A DNA stretch of 11,019 nucleotides from a virus (lineage: Duplodnaviria > Heunggongvirae > Uroviricota > Caudoviricetes). Location: IMG/VR virus record IMGVR_UViG_2534681990_000030, one strand, 5' to 3'. This document shows, in pieces, positions 1,744 through 11,019 of this stretch. The number at the start of each line of letters is the position of its first letter. The stretch's first letter is position 1. The position numbers were made by a program, and so were the translations under genes. The notes beneath the pieces were generated by a model. It was not told the origin of the DNA, made no database searches, and was given only the letters and a program-made list of their open reading frames with translations.

Positions 1744-2286
1744 ATGTACCAGCTAAAGATAACCATCCGAGACAGCAAACCACCTATATGGCGGCGTGTG
1801 CTGGTTCCAGAGCAAATCCCCTTTAGTAAACTTCATGCCGTGATCCAGTTAGCTTTTGGCTGGAATGACGAACACCTGTATATGTTCGAGAAAGGGCGTA
1901 AAGGTGATCCAGGTAGCGAGTATCGCGTATGGGGTGAGGATGAAAGCATGGGTAACGCGGCAATCACGCCACTATGGGCGGCGCTCCAGAATGAGGGTGA
2001 CAAGCTGGTTTACACGTATGACTTTGGCGACTGGTGGGATTGCGTCATTGTGCTGGAGAAGCAAACACACGATACGAGTAATCAGCCCATTAGCTGCCTG
2101 CGTGGGAAAGGCACCACCCCGGCGGAAAACTCAGGCGGCTTGCATGGTTACAATGAATTGCTATTACAGGCCAGAGAGTCTGATAATCCTGAGCAGGCCG
2201 AGATCCACAATTTCCTGATGCTGGATATTGAACGCCGGGTTTACGACCTGAGCCGCATCAACGACAGATTGCAGGCTATTAACTGA
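1744..2286 (+). CDS. pRiA4b ORF-3-like family protein (function unknown)
   Basis: 180-aa ORF with the family hallmarks as I recall them: N-terminal LKITIRDSKPPIWRRVLVP....LHAVIQLAFGWNDEHLYMF, central YTYDFGDWWDCVIVLEK, and CLRGKG..PAENSGGLHGY. Preceded by an AT-rich promoter-like region (1624-1743). Confidence 0.7.
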   Translation: MYQLKITIRDSKPPIWRRVLVPEQIPFSKLHAVIQLAFGWNDEHLYMFEKGRKGDPGSEYRVWGEDESMGNAAITPLWAALQNEGDKLVYTYDFGDWWDCVIVLEKQTHDTSNQPISCLRGKGTTPAENSGGLHGYNELLLQARESDNPEQAEIHNFLMLDIERRVYDLSRINDRLQAIN

Positions 2287-2638
2287 CCCGCATGTATTCA
2301 CCTGATATTGCGTTGTCAGCGCCGCCAGTATCGCGCATAACAGCGCACTGACCGGGTAAACCGTAGCGCACGACCGTTGCGTTAGTATCACCGCCGCGCC
2401 GTATCTGGCGCGATTCATACACTGTCACCCGCTCAAGCAGTCCACCAGCAACCATGCTTTCCAGTGTGCGCCGGGTTGATTCGAGCTGGTGACGCTTATC
2501 GAACGACACCATGCCATGAAGCAGGTAGGCCACACCCGACACATCGAACGGCGGCGCACCAATCTCACCAGTCACCCATTCGAGGTTATCCGGTTCAAAG
2601 TAGCTAAGTATCTCTTTTTTGCGACTGGTCATTCTCAT
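2279..2638 (-). CDS. Hypothetical protein (119 aa), convergent with and overlapping the 3' end of the pRiA4b ORF-3-like gene by 8 nt
   Basis: ATG at 2638 with AAGGAA about 10 nt upstream. The N-terminal two-thirds (MTSRKKEILSYFEPDNLEWVTGEIGAPPFDVSGVAYLLHGMV...LESMVAGGLLERV) looks protein-like; the C-terminal third is low-complexity. A 7-bp inverted repeat (TTATTGT 2654-2660 / ACAATAA 2676-2682) lies just upstream of the RBS. Confidence 0.45.
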   Translation of the reverse strand: MRMTSRKKEILSYFEPDNLEWVTGEIGAPPFDVSGVAYLLHGMVSFDKRHQLESTRRTLESMVAGGLLERVTVYESRQIRRGGDTNATVVRYGLPGQCAVMRDTGGADNAISGEYMRVS

Positions 2639-2639
2639 G

Positions 2640-3274
2640 GCTGGCTGATTCCTTATTGTGGGATAGCACTATCATACAATAAGTGGGTTAAAGGGAGAGC
2701 GTTACCGCCTGATATGCTGTATGAATAACAACCAAATTTCAGGTGCGGAAAAAGATATGGGGGTACTTTTGGGGGTATCTATAAAAAATGAACAATAAAA
2801 AAGGCAACAAAAACAAAGCTTATCGCCTATGTGTATTGTTCCTATTATCGCACCATTTATATCAAGCAATTACGATTAAATCCTCTCTTTGTCTGCATCA
2901 TGATTTTTTCCGTGTAACTCCATGTGTAAGTAATTTTCGTCAACATAAATCAACAATAGAGCATCCGTATCTCAGATTGGCTCAGTCTTGTTGATTTTTT
3001 CATCTTGATGAAACAATATTTCTGATATTGATGTTGGACATTTGGGGGGGCAGCTTAGCAGGCCTGTACAGGTTGTTTCATTGATTATTGCTCTATATGC
3101 CTGCCCTTTTAGATAGCCCTTTCCTGTCTACTTCCATCTATGGTGTAATCCCTTGCGAGATTAAGGTTTCTTTCGAGAGATAGTATGGAATTATTCGAAA
3201 ATTATTTGTCAGCGTTACCTAAAAAAAAGCGATTGAGTAAAGTCAAGTTGATTATCCTAAAGAGATTATGGGTT
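2640..3274. other. ~630-bp AT-rich segment with no convincing ORF, located at the truncation point of the primase gene
   Basis: Markedly lower GC than the flanks. Only a 68-aa plus-strand ORF with implausible composition is present. Contains a G7 homopolymer (3044-3050) and an A8 tract (about 3219-3226). Confidence 0.5.
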
Positions 3275-3913
3275 TCAGATGATTTTGATTTTCCTAAACC
3301 TTGGGTCAGTCAGGAGTCTTTTTTCACCATGTGATGTAATAGTCTGTGCTGCTGTGACTGCGCCGGATTTATCCACCAGCGCCAGCAACAGAGATCCATC
3401 GGGCAACACGGGGAATGTAAAATCACCTACCCCTTTCGCAACCAGATAATCAGATTTGCCGTTTACAGCCTTTCTGCGCATGTCATCAAACTGACGGGAA
3501 AACGTATCCCGTCTTTGTTGTTCGTCCTTCTCTGCCCTTTTCAGGCGCTCCTGTTCGCGTCGCTGGCGCTCGGTTTCCAGTTGTTCCCGTTTCTGGCTGG
3601 TGGCTTCTGGTGTTTCCGTTGTCCGGTAATCAATACCCAGAACATCAGCGGCAAGAAGCGCCGCCTCTGTTGTGTCGCAGTTATTTACGCGTTTAATTAA
3701 ATCCAGCCCATCACCAGCGCCGCACTGATTACAGATGAAGCTACCGCGCCCGTTGTCATCGAACCGGAATCGATCTTTGCCCCCACATGCAGGGCAGGGA
3801 GCATGACGGCGCGGAGAGTCAGGGACATTTATGTTCAGGCAGCCCAGCACATGAGGCCAGTTGTTTTCAGACGCACTGATAACCTGACGGATAAGATCAA
3901 TGTTTCGCATCAC
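3275..3913 (-). CDS. DNA primase (P4 alpha / toprim-type), N-terminal zinc-ribbon portion only; apparently truncated before the catalytic Toprim and helicase domains
   Basis: 212-aa ORF containing HAPCPACGGKDRFRFDDNGRGSFICNQCGAGDGLDL (CxxC...CxxC primase zinc ribbon), a charged linker, then the first residues of a Toprim-like region (DYLVAKGVGDFTFPVLPDGSLLLALVDKSG), ending at a TGA at 3277-3275. Full-length homologs are typically 600-800 aa (from memory). Start is GTG 3913 or ATG 3910. Confidence 0.6.
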   Translation of the reverse strand: MMRNIDLIRQVISASENNWPHVLGCLNINVPDSPRRHAPCPACGGKDRFRFDDNGRGSFICNQCGAGDGLDLIKRVNNCDTTEAALLAADVLGIDYRTTETPEATSQKREQLETERQRREQERLKRAEKDEQQRRDTFSRQFDDMRRKAVNGKSDYLVAKGVGDFTFPVLPDGSLLLALVDKSGAVTAAQTITSHGEKRLLTDPRFRKIKII

Positions 3914-4268
3914 CGTACCCCACGTGGTCTATAGCGTTTGCGATATGGCTAACCAGCATCTGCCACTTGGTTATTCCGTAATCAGTCAGCATGCCATCAT
4001 TGTTTAGCCACATATCAAATTCAGCGGTTGTCGCAAGTTTCCACTTATCGCCGTGGACAGTCCTCATTGCTGGGTACATGAATGCGCAAATCAGATCACA
4101 AACATCTGACGGCTTCAGAGATGTAGTAATGGTGCGTCCCTCTGGCGTCTGAATTGCCATTTTCTCTTCACCAGTAGAATGAAGGTTATGAATCCACACA
4201 GCACCAGCAATCTTTGCCACCTGCTCTCCGATTGCGGAGCTAAGCGCCATTTCTGCATTTTCACGCAT
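3897..4268 (-). CDS. Hypothetical protein (123 aa)
   Basis: ATG at 4268 overlaps the upstream gene's stop by 8 nt; its own stop overlaps the primase start. No motif recognised. Confidence 0.5.
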   Translation of the reverse strand: MRENAEMALSSAIGEQVAKIAGAVWIHNLHSTGEEKMAIQTPEGRTITTSLKPSDVCDLICAFMYPAMRTVHGDKWKLATTAEFDMWLNNDGMLTDYGITKWQMLVSHIANAIDHVGYGDAKH

Positions 4269-4602
4269 GAGAACCTCCCGCTACAGTTGCGCCCATGTCA
4301 TTAACCATGCTTTGCCATATCTCACGCCCGACGTCAGTCAATCCGTCCTTAGTGACGCAACGCTCAAGAAGCTCGATCCCCACGGTTTCCCACTGCGGGT
4401 AGAACACTTTCATGGCTGCCAGTGTGTAGCTATCGATCAGGCTGCGAACGCCTTTTACTCCATTAACGATTTCCACACGTACGGCCTCGCCGTCCGCATC
4501 AACCATGAAATAGTCCCCGCCGCTGGTGGAGGTAATGTGGTTATACAGTGCCGACGCATACTTATTTGCCAGCGCATTCAGTCGGAAATTTTTAGTAATC
4601 AT
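4261..4602 (-). CDS. Hypothetical protein (113 aa)
   Basis: ATG at 4602 with GGATGGAG immediately upstream, 10 nt after the stop of the preceding gene. No motif recognised. Confidence 0.5.
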   Translation of the reverse strand: MITKNFRLNALANKYASALYNHITSTSGGDYFMVDADGEAVRVEIVNGVKGVRSLIDSYTLAAMKVFYPQWETVGIELLERCVTKDGLTDVGREIWQSMVNDMGATVAGGSHA

Positions 4603-4612
4603 GGCTCCATCC

Positions 4613-5215
4613 TCAGTGCGTCACTGGTTCCGCTGGCATGCCGTTTTCATTCAGTTCAGCTATAAAGCTGTTGTGAAGTTCAGCAAGCGTTTCACGACCA
4701 AATGGAGTCAGTGCTCCTTGTTCCACATCCATCATGGCTCTGTAGAAAATGATGGCGCGTTCTGTGCCAGACTCGATGCCAAAACGTTCTATCATCGCTC
4801 CCTCAATGTTGTTTGCCATAGCGAGGCGCTCTGCTACTGGATACAGCGGCATGGCGACGATGCCGTTGGAATAAACAGCCACTTCGGAAGGATTGCCAGT
4901 ATCATCAATGATGCTGACAGTGCCGTTTTCCTCTCTCATTTCCAGCATGAATACTGTTGCGATCAGCCATCTCCACATAATGACGTTATGCTGTGATGTG
5001 TAATCGAAATATCCCTGGTTGCCGCCATCGGCAATAGCGAGATGTATTGACATACCTTCATCTGGTTTATCGTCATAATCCCCGGCATCCAGACGATTTA
5101 CGGCATCAATATATGAGACGGCCTCAACGCGTTCTGTCATGCCATCGTTGCTGCGGTACATGATGTTTACGCCGTCAGGCGTTGCTTCTGTATGGAAAGT
5201 TAAGAAATTATTCAT
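4613..5215 (-). CDS. Hypothetical protein (200 aa from ATG 5215; the ORF track extends to 5320)
   Basis: I favour ATG 5215 (MNNFLTFHTE...) because it overlaps the upstream gene's TAA (5208-5210) in the same coupling pattern seen across the operon, with GAGG upstream. The track's longer start would overlap the upstream gene by more than 100 nt. Confidence 0.5.
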   Translation of the reverse strand: MNNFLTFHTEATPDGVNIMYRSNDGMTERVEAVSYIDAVNRLDAGDYDDKPDEGMSIHLAIADGGNQGYFDYTSQHNVIMWRWLIATVFMLEMREENGTVSIIDDTGNPSEVAVYSNGIVAMPLYPVAERLAMANNIEGAMIERFGIESGTERAIIFYRAMMDVEQGALTPFGRETLAELHNSFIAELNENGMPAEPVTH

Positions 5216-5429
5216 GTTTCGCCTCGCCTGAATGATTCTGTAACTCATATTTGCCCAACAATTCGTCCGCTTCCTGAATAGCTTCTGGTACGCCATTGAG
5301 CAGTGACATAACCGCGCCAATCATTAACTTGTCTCTGTTGCTGGGGCTGGCCCCTTCAAGCCAGAACCCTAAAACAGTCTGAACCTGTTCGATGCGACAT
5401 TGCGCTTCAATGAGCTGGATGTTGGTCAT
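5208..5429 (-). CDS. Hypothetical small protein (73 aa)
   Basis: ATGA start/stop overlap with the upstream gene at 5426-5429. Confidence 0.45.
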   Translation of the reverse strand: MTNIQLIEAQCRIEQVQTVLGFWLEGASPSNRDKLMIGAVMSLLNGVPEAIQEADELLGKYELQNHSGEAKHE

Positions 5430-5689
5430 TTCGCACTCTCCACATCGATTAAACCGATATCTATCAGGGAGGTAACTTTTTGTAGCCAGCTATTGATTAC
5501 TGTCGCCTGTTCCCCGCCCACCGAGGGAACAATCTCATTCATCACATGAACCAGACCTGTGCGCGCTCTGGTAAGCCGTTCAGTCGCGCAATCTGCGGGA
5601 GTGAATGTGTCTGGATATGGCTCTTCACGCCCCAGCAATGATTCAATTTCCAGCTCACACGGATGACGATAAATTAAGTTGATATTCAT
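5426..5689 (-). CDS. Hypothetical small protein (87 aa)
   Basis: ATGA start/stop overlap at 5686-5689; GGGGGTG RBS upstream. Confidence 0.45.
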   Translation of the reverse strand: MNINLIYRHPCELEIESLLGREEPYPDTFTPADCATERLTRARTGLVHVMNEIVPSVGGEQATVINSWLQKVTSLIDIGLIDVESAK

Positions 5690-5880
5690 TTTTCACCCCC
5701 AAGAATTACCAGCTCGGCACGGGCATCGTTAACCAAAGATGAGCACGCTTTAATCGCATCCACGACATCAGTAGCGTCCATTTCTTCAGCCGAAAGACTG
5801 ACAGCAACCAGGACAGCCGCTGCTTGCTCGATTAATTGAAGTGCGGACGTAAGGCGAGGGGTATTAATTGAGTTATTCAT
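5686..5880 (-). CDS. Hypothetical small protein (64 aa from ATG 5880; the track ORF extends to 5937)
   Basis: ATG 5880 overlaps the preceding stop (5873-5875) by 8 nt. Start choice is uncertain. Confidence 0.4.
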   Translation of the reverse strand: MNNSINTPRLTSALQLIEQAAAVLVAVSLSAEEMDATDVVDAIKACSSLVNDARAELVILGGEK

Positions 5881-6091
5881 TGGTTGCCCCCGTTTTTCCT
5901 GGCATTTCGCCACCTTCCAGCAGGAAATGAACGTCACGAACGGCGAGATCCAATATCGCGAGTAACGCCTTCAGTCTTTCGTCTCGTGAGGGAGAGTTGC
6001 TCACCAGAATGTCGTTAATCACTTCTGTCAGTGTGATGATCTGGCTTGTGCGTTCGAGGGGATCCATATGCACATCGTAGGTTTTAATCAT
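5873..6091 (-). CDS. Hypothetical small protein (72 aa, [17 protein letters not shown]...); an internal in-frame start within the long 5873..6940 ORF
   Basis: ATG at 6091-6089 with GGAGGTG 4 nt upstream, overlapping the Icd-like stop by 8 nt. Sequence is protein-like, unlike the long ORF's frame immediately upstream. Confidence 0.4.
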   Translation of the reverse strand: MIKTYDVHMDPLERTSQIITLTEVINDILVSNSPSRDERLKALLAILDLAVRDVHFLLEGGEMPGKTGATNE

Positions 6092-6940
6092 GTGCCACCT
6101 CCATGCGGATACGACCAGCAAAAAAGCAGATGTGATCGCGCACCAGAGAACGGCGAGCATCGCGTTCAGACTCGGCAGCAATATGATGAATTTTGGCGGT
6201 AATTGTCGGGCAATCGCGGCGAACTGCGGCGATAATCCAGATAAATTGCGGTTTTTGGGTAGGGGTAGTAGCCAGCATGTGGCAGCCTCCTTGTACTGGG
6301 AGTTCTTCCCACCACCGGAGCTGCGAAACTCGCTGGTGGTGGACTGAACAGAGTTCGCAGTACCGGCGTACAAGGAAACCGGCCAGCCTTTCGGCTGCCC
6401 TGTCCAGCCCACCATAATTTTGCAAGCGACGCGGATTATAACCGCATCACTGAAAAAAGTGTGAGTCTGGCTAACGGCACAAAAAAAGACGCTCGGCGCG
6501 TCATGTGTCGCCTCGTACATTTCCGGGCTGCGAAACCCGGCACCCGTTTTATGAGGTGCCTTATAACCATAAACCGTGTTGCCGCATAACGGCAAGCTCT
6601 TTTTTATGGACTCCGAAAACTCACTATTGGAAGCACCAGATGCACAATACATCGCGCTCATTTCGTTAACGTCGCGCGTGTGGACGAAGGTTTTTGTGGA
6701 GTCACTACGCGAGCAGAGAAAGCCATCTACGACCAGAAATTCTCTGGCGCAGCCGCCGACCTTCTCAACGCTAACACCATCGACCGTAATTTCTGACATA
6801 GTTAAGGCATCCGCTCCCACCACCAGAAAATGATAAACTTTGCTTGTATCTGCTGTATTAATGCCAGACTTTGCTGTCATATTGCTGGATTTTGGCGACA
6901 TACCAGCCAGTGAAAATATCTTCTTCTGGACGGTTAGCAT
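5873..6940 (-). CDS. Long ORF (355 aa) of unresolved gene model: hypothetical protein whose first ~170 codons (6940 to ~6430) look protein-like; the remainder overlaps the Icd-like and 72-aa genes
   Basis: ATG at 6940 with GGAGG 7 nt upstream, overlapping the preceding gene's stop. The frame stays open to 5873, but between ~6425 and 6091 its translation is S/L/P/A-rich and unprotein-like while another frame carries the Icd-like gene with a strong RBS. Possible frameshift or lost stop. Confidence 0.35.
6084..6278 (-). CDS. Icd-like protein (host cell division inhibitor Icd-like family), 64 aa
   Basis: [64 protein letters not shown] resembles Icd-like small proteins of P4-type elements (recollection, not a search). 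ATG at 6278-6276 with AAGGAGG 8 nt upstream. It lies out of frame inside the long ORF 5873..6940. Confidence 0.45.
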   Translation of the reverse strand: MLATTPTQKPQFIWIIAAVRRDCPTITAKIHHIAAESERDARRSLVRDHICFFAGRIRMEVAHD

Positions 6941-7116
6941 TTGTTAACCTCCGCGAACTCCTTCATGAAGCGCGCCAGCGGTTGTACGCATGGCGATTGA
7001 TACCCGTCGCGATAAAACGTCACTCGGTTGTGAGACACGCTTTCGACAGTAACGAGTGCTCCGTGGGCATCCTTGTAGCGTTTTTGAGGTTGTGGTGTTC
7101 CTGTCGGCTTAAACAT
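6934..7116 (-). CDS. Hypothetical small protein (60 aa, [60 protein letters not shown])
   Basis: ATG at 7116-7114 with GGAGGTGG 4 nt upstream; overlaps the AntA-like stop. The track's longer ORF to 7203 would overlap the AntA-like gene by ~95 nt. Confidence 0.45.
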   Translation of the reverse strand: MFKPTGTPQPQKRYKDAHGALVTVESVSHNRVTFYRDGYQSPCVQPLARFMKEFAEVNKC

Positions 7117-7942
7117 GGACCACCTCCAGACGCTTAGCGAGCCAGCGTTGCGACAGGCGGGTGAGTTCTCCTTTGCGCTGCTCATATTCCATGCCCATAT
7201 CAATTAACGTGATATTGGTGCTTTCGAGATATGAGAGGTGCTCAAGTTGTTCTGCGTTCATATGGTCGCGAGGTTCGCCAGAATAGCCATTTATCCGCGC
7301 CCACTGCTTAGCAGTTAGCCCACCAAGAACGATACGAGAAATCATATTGCTCTCGTTTGTGTAGTGGTGTTGCTGCGTCGTTTTCCCCTGCTCGGCACGG
7401 GCCATATTCAGCGCATCGCACATTGGCTTAAAGTTGTTTGCGGCACTGATACGGGCTTTTAGCTGGCGAAGATAGCGGGCGGCGATTTCAGGAACGCTAC
7501 GCTGTAATTCTTCCTCGCACTGGATGAAATAACGGCGGATAGCGCGACCCTGATCATTGCGTTCGATCATTGCCAGTTCTTTCGCCATTCCGACACTTAA
7601 CAGATAGTCTTTGCCGGGTCTGCCAGACTGCTTAATCTTTCTGTAAGCCACGCCATTCGGGCTTTTCCCCAAATTTGGGGAAATAGTTTTATGGACTGAG
7701 TAATCGTGCCCAATGGTGAAGTCATATTCAGAGATGCGATCAGTGATCCATGTAGAGAAGTCTTTTCCCACGCCCAACGCTTTGTGTAACGCTTTTGCGC
7801 TAACAATATTGGTTTCACGCCCACCGATATGACCAGGAATAACCGGGACAATTGCGGCAAATTCATTACCGTTAATTGTGCTCAGAGAGGCGTTCAGATG
7901 AGGGGCGGCCTCAGAAATTAATCTGCTTTTTTCGATGTTCAT
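7109..7942 (-). CDS. Phage antirepressor-like protein (AntA/AntB N-terminal domain family)
   Basis: 277-aa ORF. N-terminal NIVSAKALHKALGVGKDFSTWITDRISEYDFTIGHDY matches the AntA/AntB antirepressor motif (ARDLH..L......F..WI..RI..Y.F..G.DF) as I recall it. GGAGA RBS; ATG at 7942. Confidence 0.6.
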   Translation of the reverse strand: MNIEKSRLISEAAPHLNASLSTINGNEFAAIVPVIPGHIGGRETNIVSAKALHKALGVGKDFSTWITDRISEYDFTIGHDYSVHKTISPNLGKSPNGVAYRKIKQSGRPGKDYLLSVGMAKELAMIERNDQGRAIRRYFIQCEEELQRSVPEIAARYLRQLKARISAANNFKPMCDALNMARAEQGKTTQQHHYTNESNMISRIVLGGLTAKQWARINGYSGEPRDHMNAEQLEHLSYLESTNITLIDMGMEYEQRKGELTRLSQRWLAKRLEVVHV

Positions 7943-7954
7943 TTTCAGTCTCCG

Positions 7955-8386
7955 TTAAGCGGCGTTAAACGCGTCCGGGTAGAGTTTCAGAATGTCGGCA
8001 ATTTCCTGCTGAGAAAGTCCGTTGTGATCATTTATGTTCGCAAGATGGTTAATATGAGTGATCACTTTCAGAACATCACCACGGCAGGAGAAACGGTAGC
8101 GAAGGTGTGTTCCGATACCATCAGGATTCTTTTCGTCGATACGCTCCAGAGTGATTCCAAGCTGGCGTTCTAACTCTGTTGCATAGTTACGACCAGAAGA
8201 CAGACGGCAGTAGCGAAGAATGTCATTTTCTGTCCATCCCTCTATACCAGTACGCAGCATATAGACTCTGGCACGATGCTTTTTCGGTGTGCGCTTTGGT
8301 GCTTGAAGGGATTTTGTAAGGGGCGTAACATCAGATACGCGAATATCTGAATTAGCCGCCTGTAATGGGCGGTTTTTCTTATTCAT
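7955..8386 (-). CDS. Hypothetical protein (143 aa), basic N-terminus; possible DNA-binding protein
   Basis: ATG at 8386 overlaps the alpA stop (TAATG). Lys/Arg-rich N-terminus (PKRTPKKHRAR). No specific family recognised. Confidence 0.5.
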   Translation of the reverse strand: MNKKNRPLQAANSDIRVSDVTPLTKSLQAPKRTPKKHRARVYMLRTGIEGWTENDILRYCRLSSGRNYATELERQLGITLERIDEKNPDGIGTHLRYRFSCRGDVLKVITHINHLANINDHNGLSQQEIADILKLYPDAFNAA

Positions 8387-8583
8387 TACGCTACCTCGCC
8401 ACGCGACTCAGCGATGCGCTGATTAATCCATTCTTCAATTTCACTTTCAATAAACGCAATTGATCGGCTTCCAATCTTTACAGATTGAGGGAATCGCTGT
8501 TCTTTGATGAGCCGATAAATCCACGCTTTGCTGTAACCAGTACGGCGTTGAACCTCAGAAAGACGAATAAATGATTGAGACAT
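8386..8583 (-). CDS. alpA: AlpA-family phage transcriptional regulator
   Basis: 65-aa ORF FIRLSEVQRRTGYSKAWIYRLIKEQRFPQSVKIGSRSIAFIESEIEEWI matches the AlpA pattern. AGGAG RBS 5 nt upstream of ATG 8583. Positioned as first gene of the coupled operon downstream of the integrase. Confidence 0.8.
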   Translation of the reverse strand: MSQSFIRLSEVQRRTGYSKAWIYRLIKEQRFPQSVKIGSRSIAFIESEIEEWINQRIAESRGEVA

Positions 8584-8664
8584 GTTTACTCCTATATTCT
8601 GTCATCTTCTTTAATGGACATCAGTAGACAGAAAGGAGATTAAACAAACCGGTGAATGGGTGAT

Positions 8665-8736
8665 AGCGGATAAAAATAAAATATTTTTTTGAGAAGATTA
8701 TCCGCTTTGAAATACACAGTAGCGTATTCAAAGCGG
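8665..8736. promoter_or_regulatory. Two overlapping perfect palindromes upstream of alpA: AGCGGATA (8665-8672) / TATCCGCT (8699-8706) around an AT-rich 26-bp spacer, and CCGCTTTGAA (8702-8711) / TTCAAAGCGG (8727-8736)
   Basis: Read directly from the sequence. Located 80-150 bp upstream of the alpA start in the AT-rich spacer after the 293-aa gene. No U-tract follows on either strand, so an operator is more likely than a terminator. Confidence 0.45.
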
Positions 8737-8780
8737 AAATCGCGAAATTTACTTAAAACGTTTACGTAGGATTTTGCTTG

Positions 8781-9662
8781 CTATAAATCTCTACTCATTA
8801 AATCAGATATTTTTATCAAGCTCATTTCTCTGTCTTTGTTTACATAAAGCTGAAGCAAGCGGGTGTATCTCTCGCTTATAGATTCAAGTGCAAAAGGCTT
8901 TATTGATTCCTTAATAGCCTGCGTATCTTTCGGATCATCACTAAAAACCAAGGCAGAAATCATCGGATTGCTCACTTCCTTACCTGACTTCTCACCCCAA
9001 ATCAGCAGATCAACAATAGGTATCACTCTATTAGATATCAACTTCTGAAGGGTCTTTAATCCAATCCTTTTCTGAGCGACATGCTCTCTCTCTGGTACTT
9101 TTAACTCTTTTCGCCATAGAGGTAGAAGGTGAGTCAGGCTGGTAATAATTTCGTCATCAGTGGCGTCATCTAAATCTATAGAAACGAGTATGATGTTAGG
9201 GGAACAATTACTTAGGTTTCCAGTAACACTCGCAAGCATAGCGTTTGCCTTGAGGTAGCAATCCTCTTCGTCTCTTTTAAAAAAGCCTTGATCTATCGAT
9301 GAGAAAGAGTACATGGCCAGCTCTGAAAATGTTACTGGACTAACCCCCATAGCTGAAGATAATGAGGGAAGATCATCGTACTCATTTCTTAATGATGGGG
9401 CTTCATCATTTACTTTGCGAATAAATTCTTCGACCTCTTCCTCTTCTTCATTGAGAATGGTTAGGTTAGGATCGCCCGAAAAAATCCTTTCATATTTTAT
9501 ATCGTACTCTTCTTTGAATATAGCAGTGTCATCTTTTGCATGACGCAATAAAAAATCGCGCCACTCTAATTCTTGAATCAAGTCCGGCAAGGTTAAATCA
9601 TTTAAAAATTCATAATTACTAATATCAAACCATGCTAAATCTTGTTTTTTGGCTCTCACCAT
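8781..9662 (-). CDS. Hypothetical protein (293 aa), low-GC orphan gene in the integrase-alpA slot; acidic stretches (NEEEEEVEEF); no recognisable catalytic motif
   Basis: Long ORF with ATG at 9662 and GGGGTGG upstream. Composition is clearly more AT-rich than the flanking integrase and alpA operon, and it is bounded by AT-rich spacers. Confidence 0.6.
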   Translation of the reverse strand: MVRAKKQDLAWFDISNYEFLNDLTLPDLIQELEWRDFLLRHAKDDTAIFKEEYDIKYERIFSGDPNLTILNEEEEEVEEFIRKVNDEAPSLRNEYDDLPSLSSAMGVSPVTFSELAMYSFSSIDQGFFKRDEEDCYLKANAMLASVTGNLSNCSPNIILVSIDLDDATDDEIITSLTHLLPLWRKELKVPEREHVAQKRIGLKTLQKLISNRVIPIVDLLIWGEKSGKEVSNPMISALVFSDDPKDTQAIKESIKPFALESISERYTRLLQLYVNKDREMSLIKISDLMSRDL

Positions 9663-9804
9663 ACGCCACCCCGCGCCCCTAATTCTGACGGCTATGCCAG
9701 CCCGTAGGGGTGTACGGGTTTTCGGGGATCAGCCTAGACATAGCCTATTCTTTGTTCGTCTACATAAGTCTACTACCATTGCTTAACACGGTCTATTCAT
9801 ACAG

Positions 9805-11019
9805 TTAAGCTCGTTTCCCAAACGAACCATGAACAACGTTCTCCTCCTTCTCCAGCGCATCCATATAGTCGGCATACCATTGAAGCATCTCCCGCCTTCC
9901 ATCCAGATATTGCGCATGGTTGTATGTGCCACGAATTGAGTTCTTATCAACGTGAGCGAGCTGCGTTTCTATCCACGCGGTGTTATAGCCCTGCTCATGC
10001 AAAATCGTGCTCATAGTGTGCCGGAACCCATGACCAGTTACACGTCCAGCGTAGCCAATGCGCTTAAACACTTGGTTTATGCTGGCCTCACTCATTGTTT
10101 TCCTTGGATCATTGCGCCCGGGAAACATAAGAGGGTAATTGCCTGTTATTTCTCTAATCTTCCCAATAAGCGAAAGAGCCTGATCAGACAATGGCACAAT
10201 ATGAGGCCGCCGCATTTTCATACGTGAAGCGGGTATCTCCCAGATAGCCTTGTTGAAATCAATTTCATCCCATAATGCGCCACGTAGTTCGCCAGTCCGC
10301 AAGCCGGTGATAATCAGTAGACGAGCCGCCATAACAACCAATGCGCTTCCTGAGTAACTGGACAATGCCTTGAAAAAATCAGGTAATTCTTTAGCTGTAA
10401 GGAAAGGGTAATGATTAGATTCATGGCCTTGCATCGCGCTAGTAAGGTCTGGTGCAGGGTTATACTCTGCGCGACCAGTGACTATTGCATAGCGGAAAAC
10501 TTCCCCGCACCGCTGCCTCACTTTTTTGGCTTTTTCTGTAGCACCGCGCCCCTCGATGCGCCGCAGCACATTCAGAAGTTCAAGTGGTTTGATTTCGGCG
10601 ATTGGTTTTTTGCCAATGTAAGGGAACACATCTTTGTTGAAGGCTTCGAGGATGTCTGAAGCATAACCAGCAGACCATTTTTTTAATTTGCTGCTGTGCC
10701 ACTCAAGGGCAATATCTTTGAAGGTGTTGTTTAACTGCGTTTCCCGGGCAATCTTTTCCTCTCGTTTCGCTTCCATCGGATCGATACCACCAGCGATACC
10801 TCTTTTCGCATCTTCACGTTTTGCCCGAGCATCGGCTAGAGTAACCTCAGGATACACACCTAGTGCCAATAGCTTCTCTTTACCAGCTACACGATATTTA
10901 AGTCGCCAGTATTTACCTCCATTAGGTTTTACCAAGAGATACAAACCGCCACCATCGGCCAGCTTGTAAGCCTTCTCTTTTGGCTTGGCTGTGTCTATTT
11001 GACGGGCATTGAGTTTCAC
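9805..11019 (-). CDS. int: Tyrosine recombinase / phage integrase (P4-type); N-terminus at or just beyond the window edge
   Basis: 404-aa ORF with an N-terminal arm-binding-type motif (AKPKEKAYKLADGGGLYLLVKPNGGKYWRLKYR) and C-terminal catalytic signature HGFRHT ... IRGTYNHAQY (HxxR and nucleophile Tyr). The first codon in the window is GTG at the very last base, so the true start may lie upstream. Confidence 0.9.
   Translation of the reverse strand: MKLNARQIDTAKPKEKAYKLADGGGLYLLVKPNGGKYWRLKYRVAGKEKLLALGVYPEVTLADARAKREDAKRGIAGGIDPMEAKREEKIARETQLNNTFKDIALEWHSSKLKKWSAGYASDILEAFNKDVFPYIGKKPIAEIKPLELLNVLRRIEGRGATEKAKKVRQRCGEVFRYAIVTGRAEYNPAPDLTSAMQGHESNHYPFLTAKELPDFFKALSSYSGSALVVMAARLLIITGLRTGELRGALWDEIDFNKAIWEIPASRMKMRRPHIVPLSDQALSLIGKIREITGNYPLMFPGRNDPRKTMSEASINQVFKRIGYAGRVTGHGFRHTMSTILHEQGYNTAWIETQLAHVDKNSIRGTYNHAQYLDGRREMLQWYADYMDALEKEENVVHGSFGKRA

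Follow-up and report, generated by a model that had tools for sequence, protein, structure and literature searches.

In the 11,019-nucleotide stretch of DNA analysed here (IMG/VR record IMGVR_UViG_2534681990_000030, referred to below as the window), a P4-like element carries on the minus strand an open reading frame (ORF) at 3275..3913 that begins like a primase gene, ends after 212 aa and is followed by an AT-rich stretch (2640-3274). This raises the question of which gene the ORF comes from, what the DNA beyond its end is, and how the two were joined. The initial annotation of this DNA had proposed that a deletion or replacement removed the catalytic and helicase domains. We found that the window ORF appears to be a pseudogene remnant, holding the first 201 codons of a 918-aa primase-helicase from a P4-like thrW element of Escherichia coli O111:H8. 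Residues 202-918 are absent while near-identical islands keep the gene intact, so that the proposed loss of domains stood; its form as a single event was refined to several steps linked to the insertion sequence (IS) IS1203. The truncation and its IS-anchored origin are well supported by the sequence comparisons presented here.

The intact parent gene and what is left of it

By megablast against 5426 complete E. coli genomes, we found islands that carry an intact 2757-bp coding sequence (CDS) at the position of the ORF. Window positions 3309-4300 are 100% identical to these islands, near-identical islands with the intact gene show 99.9% identity across 3309-11019, and the DNA identity of the window to the islands of AR_452 and strain 6409 starts at 3309. 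The intact product, WP_001585368.1 ("TOPRIM and DUF927 domain-containing protein", 918 aa), is composed, according to Pfam, of Zn_Ribbon_Prim (residues 34-69), Toprim_3 (221-318) and DUF927 (365-643). Using this protein as a tblastn query, we found residues 1-201 at window 3910..3308 with 100% identity, and residues 202-918 gave nothing significant anywhere in the window. The alignment to full-length relatives, which had been suggested as a way to find where homology ends, thus stops at residue 201 and base 3309. Compared with WP_001585368.1 of thrW islands such as those of AR_452 and 6409, the window copy is identical up to that residue, lacks Toprim_3, DUF927 and the C-terminal region, and ends in 10 unrelated residues: its product ends in ...EKRLLTDPRFRKIKII*, whereas the intact protein there reads ...EKRLLTGSAKRG... 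(GSAKRG...). The high identity is collinear and the neighbourhood is conserved, with the same upstream operon order of integrase, DUF6387, AlpA, AntA, DUF4222, ash/C4 region and small ORFs and 99.9-100% identical DNA, indicating that the ORF is the remnant of an orthologue of WP_001585368.1.

The ORF encodes 212 aa from a GTG codon, or 211 aa from the ATG at 3910, which is the start given by PGAP in relatives. Its start is native and overlaps the end of the upstream gene, as in intact islands. Pfam recognised the N-terminal zinc ribbon (CxxC...CxxC) of P4-alpha-type primases, which aligns with the zinc ribbon of P4 alpha, and detected no further primase or helicase domain in the ORF; the initial description of a primase zinc ribbon with an early stop was therefore borne out. 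The Toprim catalytic domain, with its EGYATA-type glutamate and acidic metal-binding residues, found no Pfam match in the ORF, and an NCBIfam scan of the ORF and its neighbours gave no match. The same description had also read the first Toprim-like residues into the ORF, which was mistaken, because the remnant stops about 20 residues short of Toprim_3 and of the EGLATA motif (about residues 225-230) of the 918-aa relative. A C-terminal NTPase/helicase domain, of either the DUF927 type or the D5/DUF5906 type, is absent from the window by both Pfam and tblastn. These results indicate that the remnant is without every catalytic part of the primase-helicase. As tests for the Toprim and helicase features found neither, the stump does not itself count as a member of the functional primase or primase-helicase families.

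At least 80% of the intact gene was present in 361 of the 5426 genomes, mostly at 99% identity or more, and short standalone zinc-ribbon proteins, which had been named as a possible conserved state of this island family, are thus not that state. Nor does a sequencing error hide a long ORF: the DNA from base 3308 on belongs to a different locus, so that no frameshift or indel can restore the reading frame.

The 918-aa protein is also related to the alpha protein of phage P4, a primase-helicase of 777 aa, with 33% identity over residues 7-361 (E 2e-41). The EGYATA motif of P4 alpha aligns with EGLATA of the 918-aa relative, and both proteins match Zn_Ribbon_Prim and Toprim_3. The helicase half of P4 alpha is of the D5_N/DUF5906/Pox_D5 type, whereas that of the 918-aa relative is of the DUF927 type, suggesting that the likeness to P4 alpha is limited to the N-terminal primase half. 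The window remnant differs further from P4 alpha in holding just the zinc ribbon and the segment before Toprim. The only PDB sequence match of the 918-aa relative was 8tch, "Pathogenicity island protein". As a separate observation, the 5' 838 nt (about 279 codons) of the intact primase gene (5846-8602 of locus L003) show about 93% DNA identity to E. coli genes annotated "DUF5906 domain-containing protein", which suggests that one primase module has recombined onto two helicase types.

The adjoining DNA, the sister alleles and the junction

The AT-rich stretch has a GC content of 37.0% over its 635 bp, whereas the primase remnant reaches 52.2% and the window as a whole 47.7%. Each of its three minus-strand frames contains 11-14 stops, with a longest open run of 55 codons, in agreement with the earlier claim that no minus-strand ORF runs on through it; by itself, the absence of a long ORF in 635 bp at 37% GC is not surprising. 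The description of the stretch as AT-rich was correct, but it is not free of coding sequence, as it holds 41 plus-strand codons of an HNH endonuclease gene, together with a 16-nt copy of the thrW 3' end. Sequence comparison showed that window 2200-3307 is 100% identical to a different, HNH-side locus of O111 strains (11128 and 14614), and that window 2840-3184 is 99.7% identical to O157:H7 strain NE92, the match beginning 17 nt into the tRNA-Thr gene and extending as far as the HNH start codon. For the flank upstream of the 119-aa gene, query positions 1-235 gave 97-99% matches in many non-O111 genomes, with no annotated feature there. The HNH gene continues in 11128, 14614, UTME-6 and NE92, where it overlaps a convergent C5 cytosine methyltransferase gene (dcm); the HNH motif (residues 115-159) is lost from the remnant in the window. 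In EC931, the same arrangement of PerC, pRiA4b, the 119-aa gene and the att copy abuts the pao backbone, and the thrW copy of the window can therefore be read as an island boundary of the attR type. Taken together, the AT-rich stretch appears to combine an old boundary of an island with the leader and the stump of a different gene, brought alongside the primase remnant by rearrangement. It does not consist of remains of the primase gene, since alignment to related O111 loci identified it as foreign up to 3307.

We also considered the stretch as a decayed primase, a hidden small gene or an RNA. This was rejected, because the stretch is 100% identical to a different, intact locus found in O111, O157 and other E. 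coli, and that locus carries no annotation there. At gathering thresholds, Rfam reported three RNAs elsewhere in the window and none in 2640-3274. A promoter and terminator scan of 2500-3400 gave one promoter-like and one terminator-like site, which was not above shuffled sequence. ARAGORN found no tRNA gene in the window, and it was the comparison with O157:H7 alone that revealed the thrW fragment.

The primase end of the junction was compared with related O111 strains, in which the locus is occupied by IS1203, an IS629-type element of the IS3 family. In 14614, the order is HNH-dcm-IS1203-primase remnant, and HNH and dcm are intact, as they are in UTME-6. The window aligns with the 14614 locus in three blocks and lacks about 3.3 kb (from HNH codon 41 to the IS end) as well as a second IS1203, which in 14614 lies in the DUF4222 gene with a GTG target duplication. 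In UTME-6, 93 kb of the chromosome are inverted between two IS1203 copies, one at the primase remnant and the other, which sits beside dcm, in a yaiT-like autotransporter gene. When this inversion was undone by swapping the flanks back, the autotransporter gene was restored with a 3-bp CTA target duplication, and the restored sequence is 100% contiguous in TW05614. The structure before the inversion was therefore reconstructed as HNH-dcm...ACGGTCTGCT/IS1203/GTCAGGAGTC-primase remnant. The IS stands against primase codon 200/201 in both strains; its orientation is reversed between them, and each flank is offset by 4 bp: ACGGTC/IS/GGAGTC in 14614 (11339-12648 of its locus) and ACGGTCTGCT/IS/GTCAGGAGTC in UTME-6 (6697-8006 and 10145-11454 of its loci). 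Among complete genomes, either junction of IS1203 with the primase remnant was found only in 14614 and UTME-6 themselves.

Two further strains carry other alleles. In TW05614, 256 codons of the primase survive and run into a CP4-like module at TTCTG/GGCGACAT, with no IS at the position of 3309; in 11128, the module is inverted between two IS copies and the primase is entirely lost. Every joint in the sister strains is 0-4 nt away from either an IS1203 end or a site where another strain has an IS, which suggests that the locus is a hotspot of IS1203 activity. The seven IS1203 copies examined at the locus (five loci in four genomes) are all identical, with 0 mismatches in 1310 bp, suggesting recent activity. 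PGAP marks the sister-strain stumps as incomplete pseudogenes (UTME-6 ACET1L_RS17215, 14614 KP512_RS22145 and TW05614 KP523_RS22320). They represent the same gene, island and thrW locus and are likewise truncated at the C-terminus, but the remnant abuts IS1203 in UTME-6 and 14614, the CP4-like module in TW05614 and the truncated HNH gene in the window. Direct descent of the window allele from that of 14614 was considered and rejected, as 14614 lacks the GTCA (3309-3312) that the window keeps. In the DUF4222 gene of the window (6934-7116, minus strand), we also observed an empty IS1203 site at about 7027-7032 with a single GTG, which is empty in UTME-6 too, while 14614 and TW05614 both carry IS1203 with the GTG duplication at this site.

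Aligned base by base, the junction reads ...CCTTGGGTC A GTCAGGAGTC in the window, ...CCTTGGGTC CCATCG in the HNH locus and ...AACCT GTCAGGAGTC in the intact primase gene (junction sequences: window GGGTCAGTCAGGAGTC; HNH GGGTCCCATCG; intact primase AACCTGTCAGGAGTC). Up to 3307, the window follows the HNH locus of O111 strain 11128 without a mismatch, whereas position 3308 is A in the window, T in the intact primase and C in HNH. The corresponding junctions are GGCGGTTCA/GTCAGGAGTC in UTME-6 and GGCGGTTCA/GGAGTC in 14614, where GGTTCA is the end of the 1310-bp IS1203. The primase breakpoint at 3309 is thus the exact junction of IS1203 and the primase remnant in UTME-6, while in 14614 the IS stands 1-4 bp further into the primase. 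A scar of IS629/IS1203 excision is expected to have one end of the deletion at an IS terminus or a few nt from it, and the window has such an end at 3309, together with base 3308. The microhomology at the joint is only 2 nt (TC), which is compatible with the mechanism discussed below but fairly often expected by chance. The search for a deletion breakpoint against related islands, as the initial annotation had advised, therefore located it at 3306-3308, where HNH codon 41 meets primase base 3309 (Table 1). Overall, removing 3,345 bp from the reconstructed UTME-6 ancestor yields the window sequence; the missing DNA is made up of 2,036 bp of unique sequence (the 3' part of HNH, and dcm) and 1,309 of the 1,310 IS1203 bases.

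Table 1. Features at and around the junction, with window coordinates
Feature	Position	Strand	Details
Primase-helicase gene 5' remnant	3309..3910	-	602 nt, 100% identical to the intact 2757-bp gene; protein identical through residue 201 from the ATG at 3910
Primase zinc-ribbon coding segment	3704..3811	-	residues 35-70 of the 212-aa ORF; Pfam PF08273 Zn_Ribbon_Prim, E 8.6e-16, 58.4 bits (cut-off 23)
Deletion junction	3306..3308		TC (3306-3307) common to the HNH gene and the IS1203 terminus; A at 3308 matches the last IS1203 base (...GGTTCA)
Out-of-context ORF tail	3275..3307	-	10 codons (DPRFRKIKII) and a TGA stop; antisense of the HNH gene 5' end
HNH endonuclease gene 5' remnant	3185..3307	+	41 of 219 codons; 100% identical to WP_001444700.1 residues 1-41
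HNH-dcm module leader	2856..3184	+	directly between thrW and the HNH gene in O157:H7 NE92
Degenerate thrW 3'-end copy	2840..2855	+	16 nt with a one-base deletion; TCCTATTATCGCACCA versus TCCTATTATCGGCACCA, by sequence comparison with O157:H7
Non-coding flank upstream of the 119-aa gene	2639..2839		accompanies that gene in many E. coli
119-aa hypothetical gene	2279-2638	-	the AT-rich stretch is in part its upstream region
int-alpA RNA	9677-9744	-	Rfam 46.7 bits (gathering score 35.8); between the integrase and DUF6387 genes

Proposed origin of the junction and alternative explanations

To account for this structure, we propose two steps. In the first, IS1203 would have reshuffled the locus in the O111 lineage, so that one copy came to abut the primase remnant at 3309, with the HNH endonuclease/C5-methyltransferase pair on the other side of that IS1203. 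In the second, a 3,345-bp deletion would have had one end at the IS1203 terminus, of which the last base was left, and the other at HNH codon 41, the ends being joined over the 2-nt TC microhomology. This second step bears the marks described for transposase-dependent excision of IS629/IS1203 with flanking deletion, promoted by the IS-excision enhancer (IEE) of enterohaemorrhagic E. coli (EHEC), and a deletion of that kind is its likely cause. As a working model of the earlier history, two inverted IS1203 copies might have bracketed the CP4-like module in an ancestor, with different terminus-anchored deletions following in each lineage. The comparisons show the truncation, the junction, the IS-occupied alleles of sister strains and the presence of the junction in independent assemblies; we infer both the order of these events and the part played by the transposase and the IEE. 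The account as a whole, from primase remnant through IS1203 reshuffling to a microhomology deletion anchored at the IS terminus, is in our judgement likely to be correct.

According to later papers, Kusumoto et al. (2011) reportedly described IEE-promoted excision of IS629/IS1203v with flanking deletion in EHEC. IEE-dependent excision of IS629/IS1203v produces deletions next to the IS that range from a few nt to more than 40 kb, the IEE performs microhomology-mediated end joining in vitro, and it is present in O111:H8 (PMC9943667; bioRxiv 10.1101/2023.06.07.543989). The window resembles this system in that an IS3-family element, IS1203, is involved, one end of the deletion lies at the IS terminus and the other in the flank 2 kb off, a short microhomology is found at the joint, and the host serotype is one with a reported IEE. 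It differs in that the event was reconstructed from natural variants and that the microhomology is just 2 nt.

Several points weigh against the proposed history. The exact un-inverted precursor was found in no sequenced genome, each type of IS-primase junction is represented by one complete genome only, and no genome with the two inverted IS copies of the working model was found. The single A and the 2-nt microhomology, taken alone, are weak evidence, and the IEE did not detectably extend 2-nt substrates in the in-vitro assay of the work cited above. The opposite orientation and the 4-bp offsets of IS1203 on both flanks in UTME-6 versus 14614 are not explained by simple or homologous recombination, which suggests a history more complex than the minimal model. 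Finally, since TW05614 keeps 256 codons and has no IS at 3309, the gene would already have been broken before the step that gave the window allele.

The junction was absent from the complete RefSeq E. coli genomes, none of which was found to carry it. When the exact protein was looked up, the 212-aa GTG form gave no match and the 211-aa ATG form was matched: this chimeric product is encoded in at least 24 contigs of NCBI and Logan assemblies. It has been deposited, for example, as EIL23426.1, and O111:H8 strain CVM9570 is among the sources. The carriers are contigs of 57-98 kb and one of 5.47 Mb, and carrier assemblies include GCA_041312965.1, GCA_002462115.1 and SRR30550798. The view of the carrier assemblies covered about 12 kb around the gene, and the three carrier contigs that were read are 99.99-100% identical to the window across the junction.

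A single illegitimate recombination, independent of any IS, could have joined HNH directly to the primase, with the A at 3308 untemplated or mutated. In its favour, the junction shows just 2 nt of microhomology and one base without an explanation, and the TTCTG/GGCGACAT junction of TW05614 shows that a joint without an IS at present exists at the same locus. However, the breakpoint is the same, to the base, as the IS1203-primase junction in UTME-6 and at most 4 bp away from the one in 14614, a coincidence expected by chance at about 1 in several hundred positions; moreover, the extra base equals the terminal base of the IS, and the deleted interval is exactly that from HNH codon 41 to the IS end of the sister alleles. 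We therefore regard IS-independent joining as unlikely, though it is the best of the alternatives to the IS1203-anchored deletion.

The short zinc-ribbon protein might instead be maintained as a functional standalone product, for instance a regulator or a dominant-negative inhibitor of related primases. The native start with its overlap of the upstream gene as in intact islands, the complete zinc ribbon and the recurrence of the exact protein in at least 24 contigs would fit such a role. But the last 10 residues are antisense HNH sequence, and the recurrence is explained by clonal descent in O111:H8, the carrier DNA being 99.99-100% identical. The sister strains are truncated differently (about 200-201 or 256 codons) or lack the gene entirely, PGAP calls their truncations incomplete pseudogenes, and other E. 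coli overwhelmingly have the 918-aa form. A maintained function is thus very improbable, and it seems just as far-fetched that the 211-aa fragment was kept in an O111:H8 subclade as a dominant-negative factor or decoy against the primase-helicases of incoming related satellites or helper phages. The junction could also be an error of assembly or sequencing, such as the collapse of an IS repeat or a frameshift, that hides a longer gene, but this is next to impossible. These genomes do contain IS1203 in high number, with up to 40 or more matching pieces in one genome record, and repeats often break short-read assemblies. However, the collapse of an IS could not take away 2,036 bp of unique HNH-dcm sequence, the junction recurs in independent assemblies from NCBI and Logan in contigs of up to 5.47 Mb, and no indel can restore an ORF whose downstream DNA comes from a different locus.

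The element as a whole and what the truncation means

Beyond the junction, the window shows the features of a P4-like element: a tyrosine integrase by a tRNA gene, an AlpA regulator, a C4/CI-type immunity RNA and homology to alpha-like primases. The integrase gene (9805-11019) adjoins thrW in the 14614 locus, where thrW lies on the minus strand to its right. Genes for AlpA and AntA are present in the window, and the Rfam matches are C4 antisense RNA, isrK and int-alpA RNA. No capsid-redirecting genes of the sid/psu/delta type were seen in the window, and no replication genes besides the primase remnant are evident there. The element is not flanked by directly repeated att cores; the sole thrW core copy in the window is inverted relative to thrW, so the integrase could not excise the element as a circle from these two sites. 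This copy marks the attR of a thrW island that has PerC-pRiA4b-119aa at its right end, and its inverted orientation implies that this part of the locus was inverted in an ancestor in O111. The earlier proposal that the element probably does not replicate autonomously is a reasonable inference, strengthened by the inverted thrW copy. Lacking a primase and a helicase, and with no att partner in the right orientation in the window, the element would be an immobilised, non-replicating relic.

Two side observations concern other parts of the window. The 355-aa "ash family" ORF (5873-6940, minus strand) matches Pfam Phage_ASH at residues 124-232 (nt 6245-6571), a segment in which Rfam also places, on the same strand, isrK (6482-6559) and C4 antisense RNA (6332-6419). 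In UTME-6, PGAP places a 64-aa Icd-like CDS (window about 6084-6278) in another frame inside the "ash" ORF, and the layout of "ash", isrK, C4 and Icd resembles the c4-icd arrangement of P1 immI. The long "ash" ORF, and perhaps the Phage_ASH family itself, may be largely the translation of an RNA locus. Elsewhere in the window, two paralogous small ORFs on the plus strand (411-629, 72 aa; 1438-1623, 61 aa) flank a perC-family gene (861-1142) and share MTPREIELLTIAKLEHGGHQL-type sequence. In O111 genomes, hypothetical proteins are annotated for the 61-aa ORF and for a shortened version of the 72-aa ORF (14614 locus 6438-6629).

The finding is in itself ordinary: the exact protein is already public, the sister stumps are already PGAP pseudogenes, and IS629/IS1203-driven deletion in EHEC is already known. 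The present analysis adds where exactly the break lies, which DNA adjoins it and a probable mechanism, and the overall value is modest. For annotation, it means that O111:H8 entries named "P4 alpha zinc-binding domain-containing protein" or "helicase" would represent the stump of a chimeric gene and not a small primase family. Because the same deletion removed the HNH endonuclease/C5-methyltransferase pair, carriers should differ from sister O111 strains in cytosine methylation, and the junction could serve as a lineage marker. For the biology of these elements, the locus, with at least four different scars in sister strains 0-4 nt from an IS1203 terminus, offers a base-resolved natural case in which IS1203 activity appears to have eroded and immobilised a P4-like element in EHEC.

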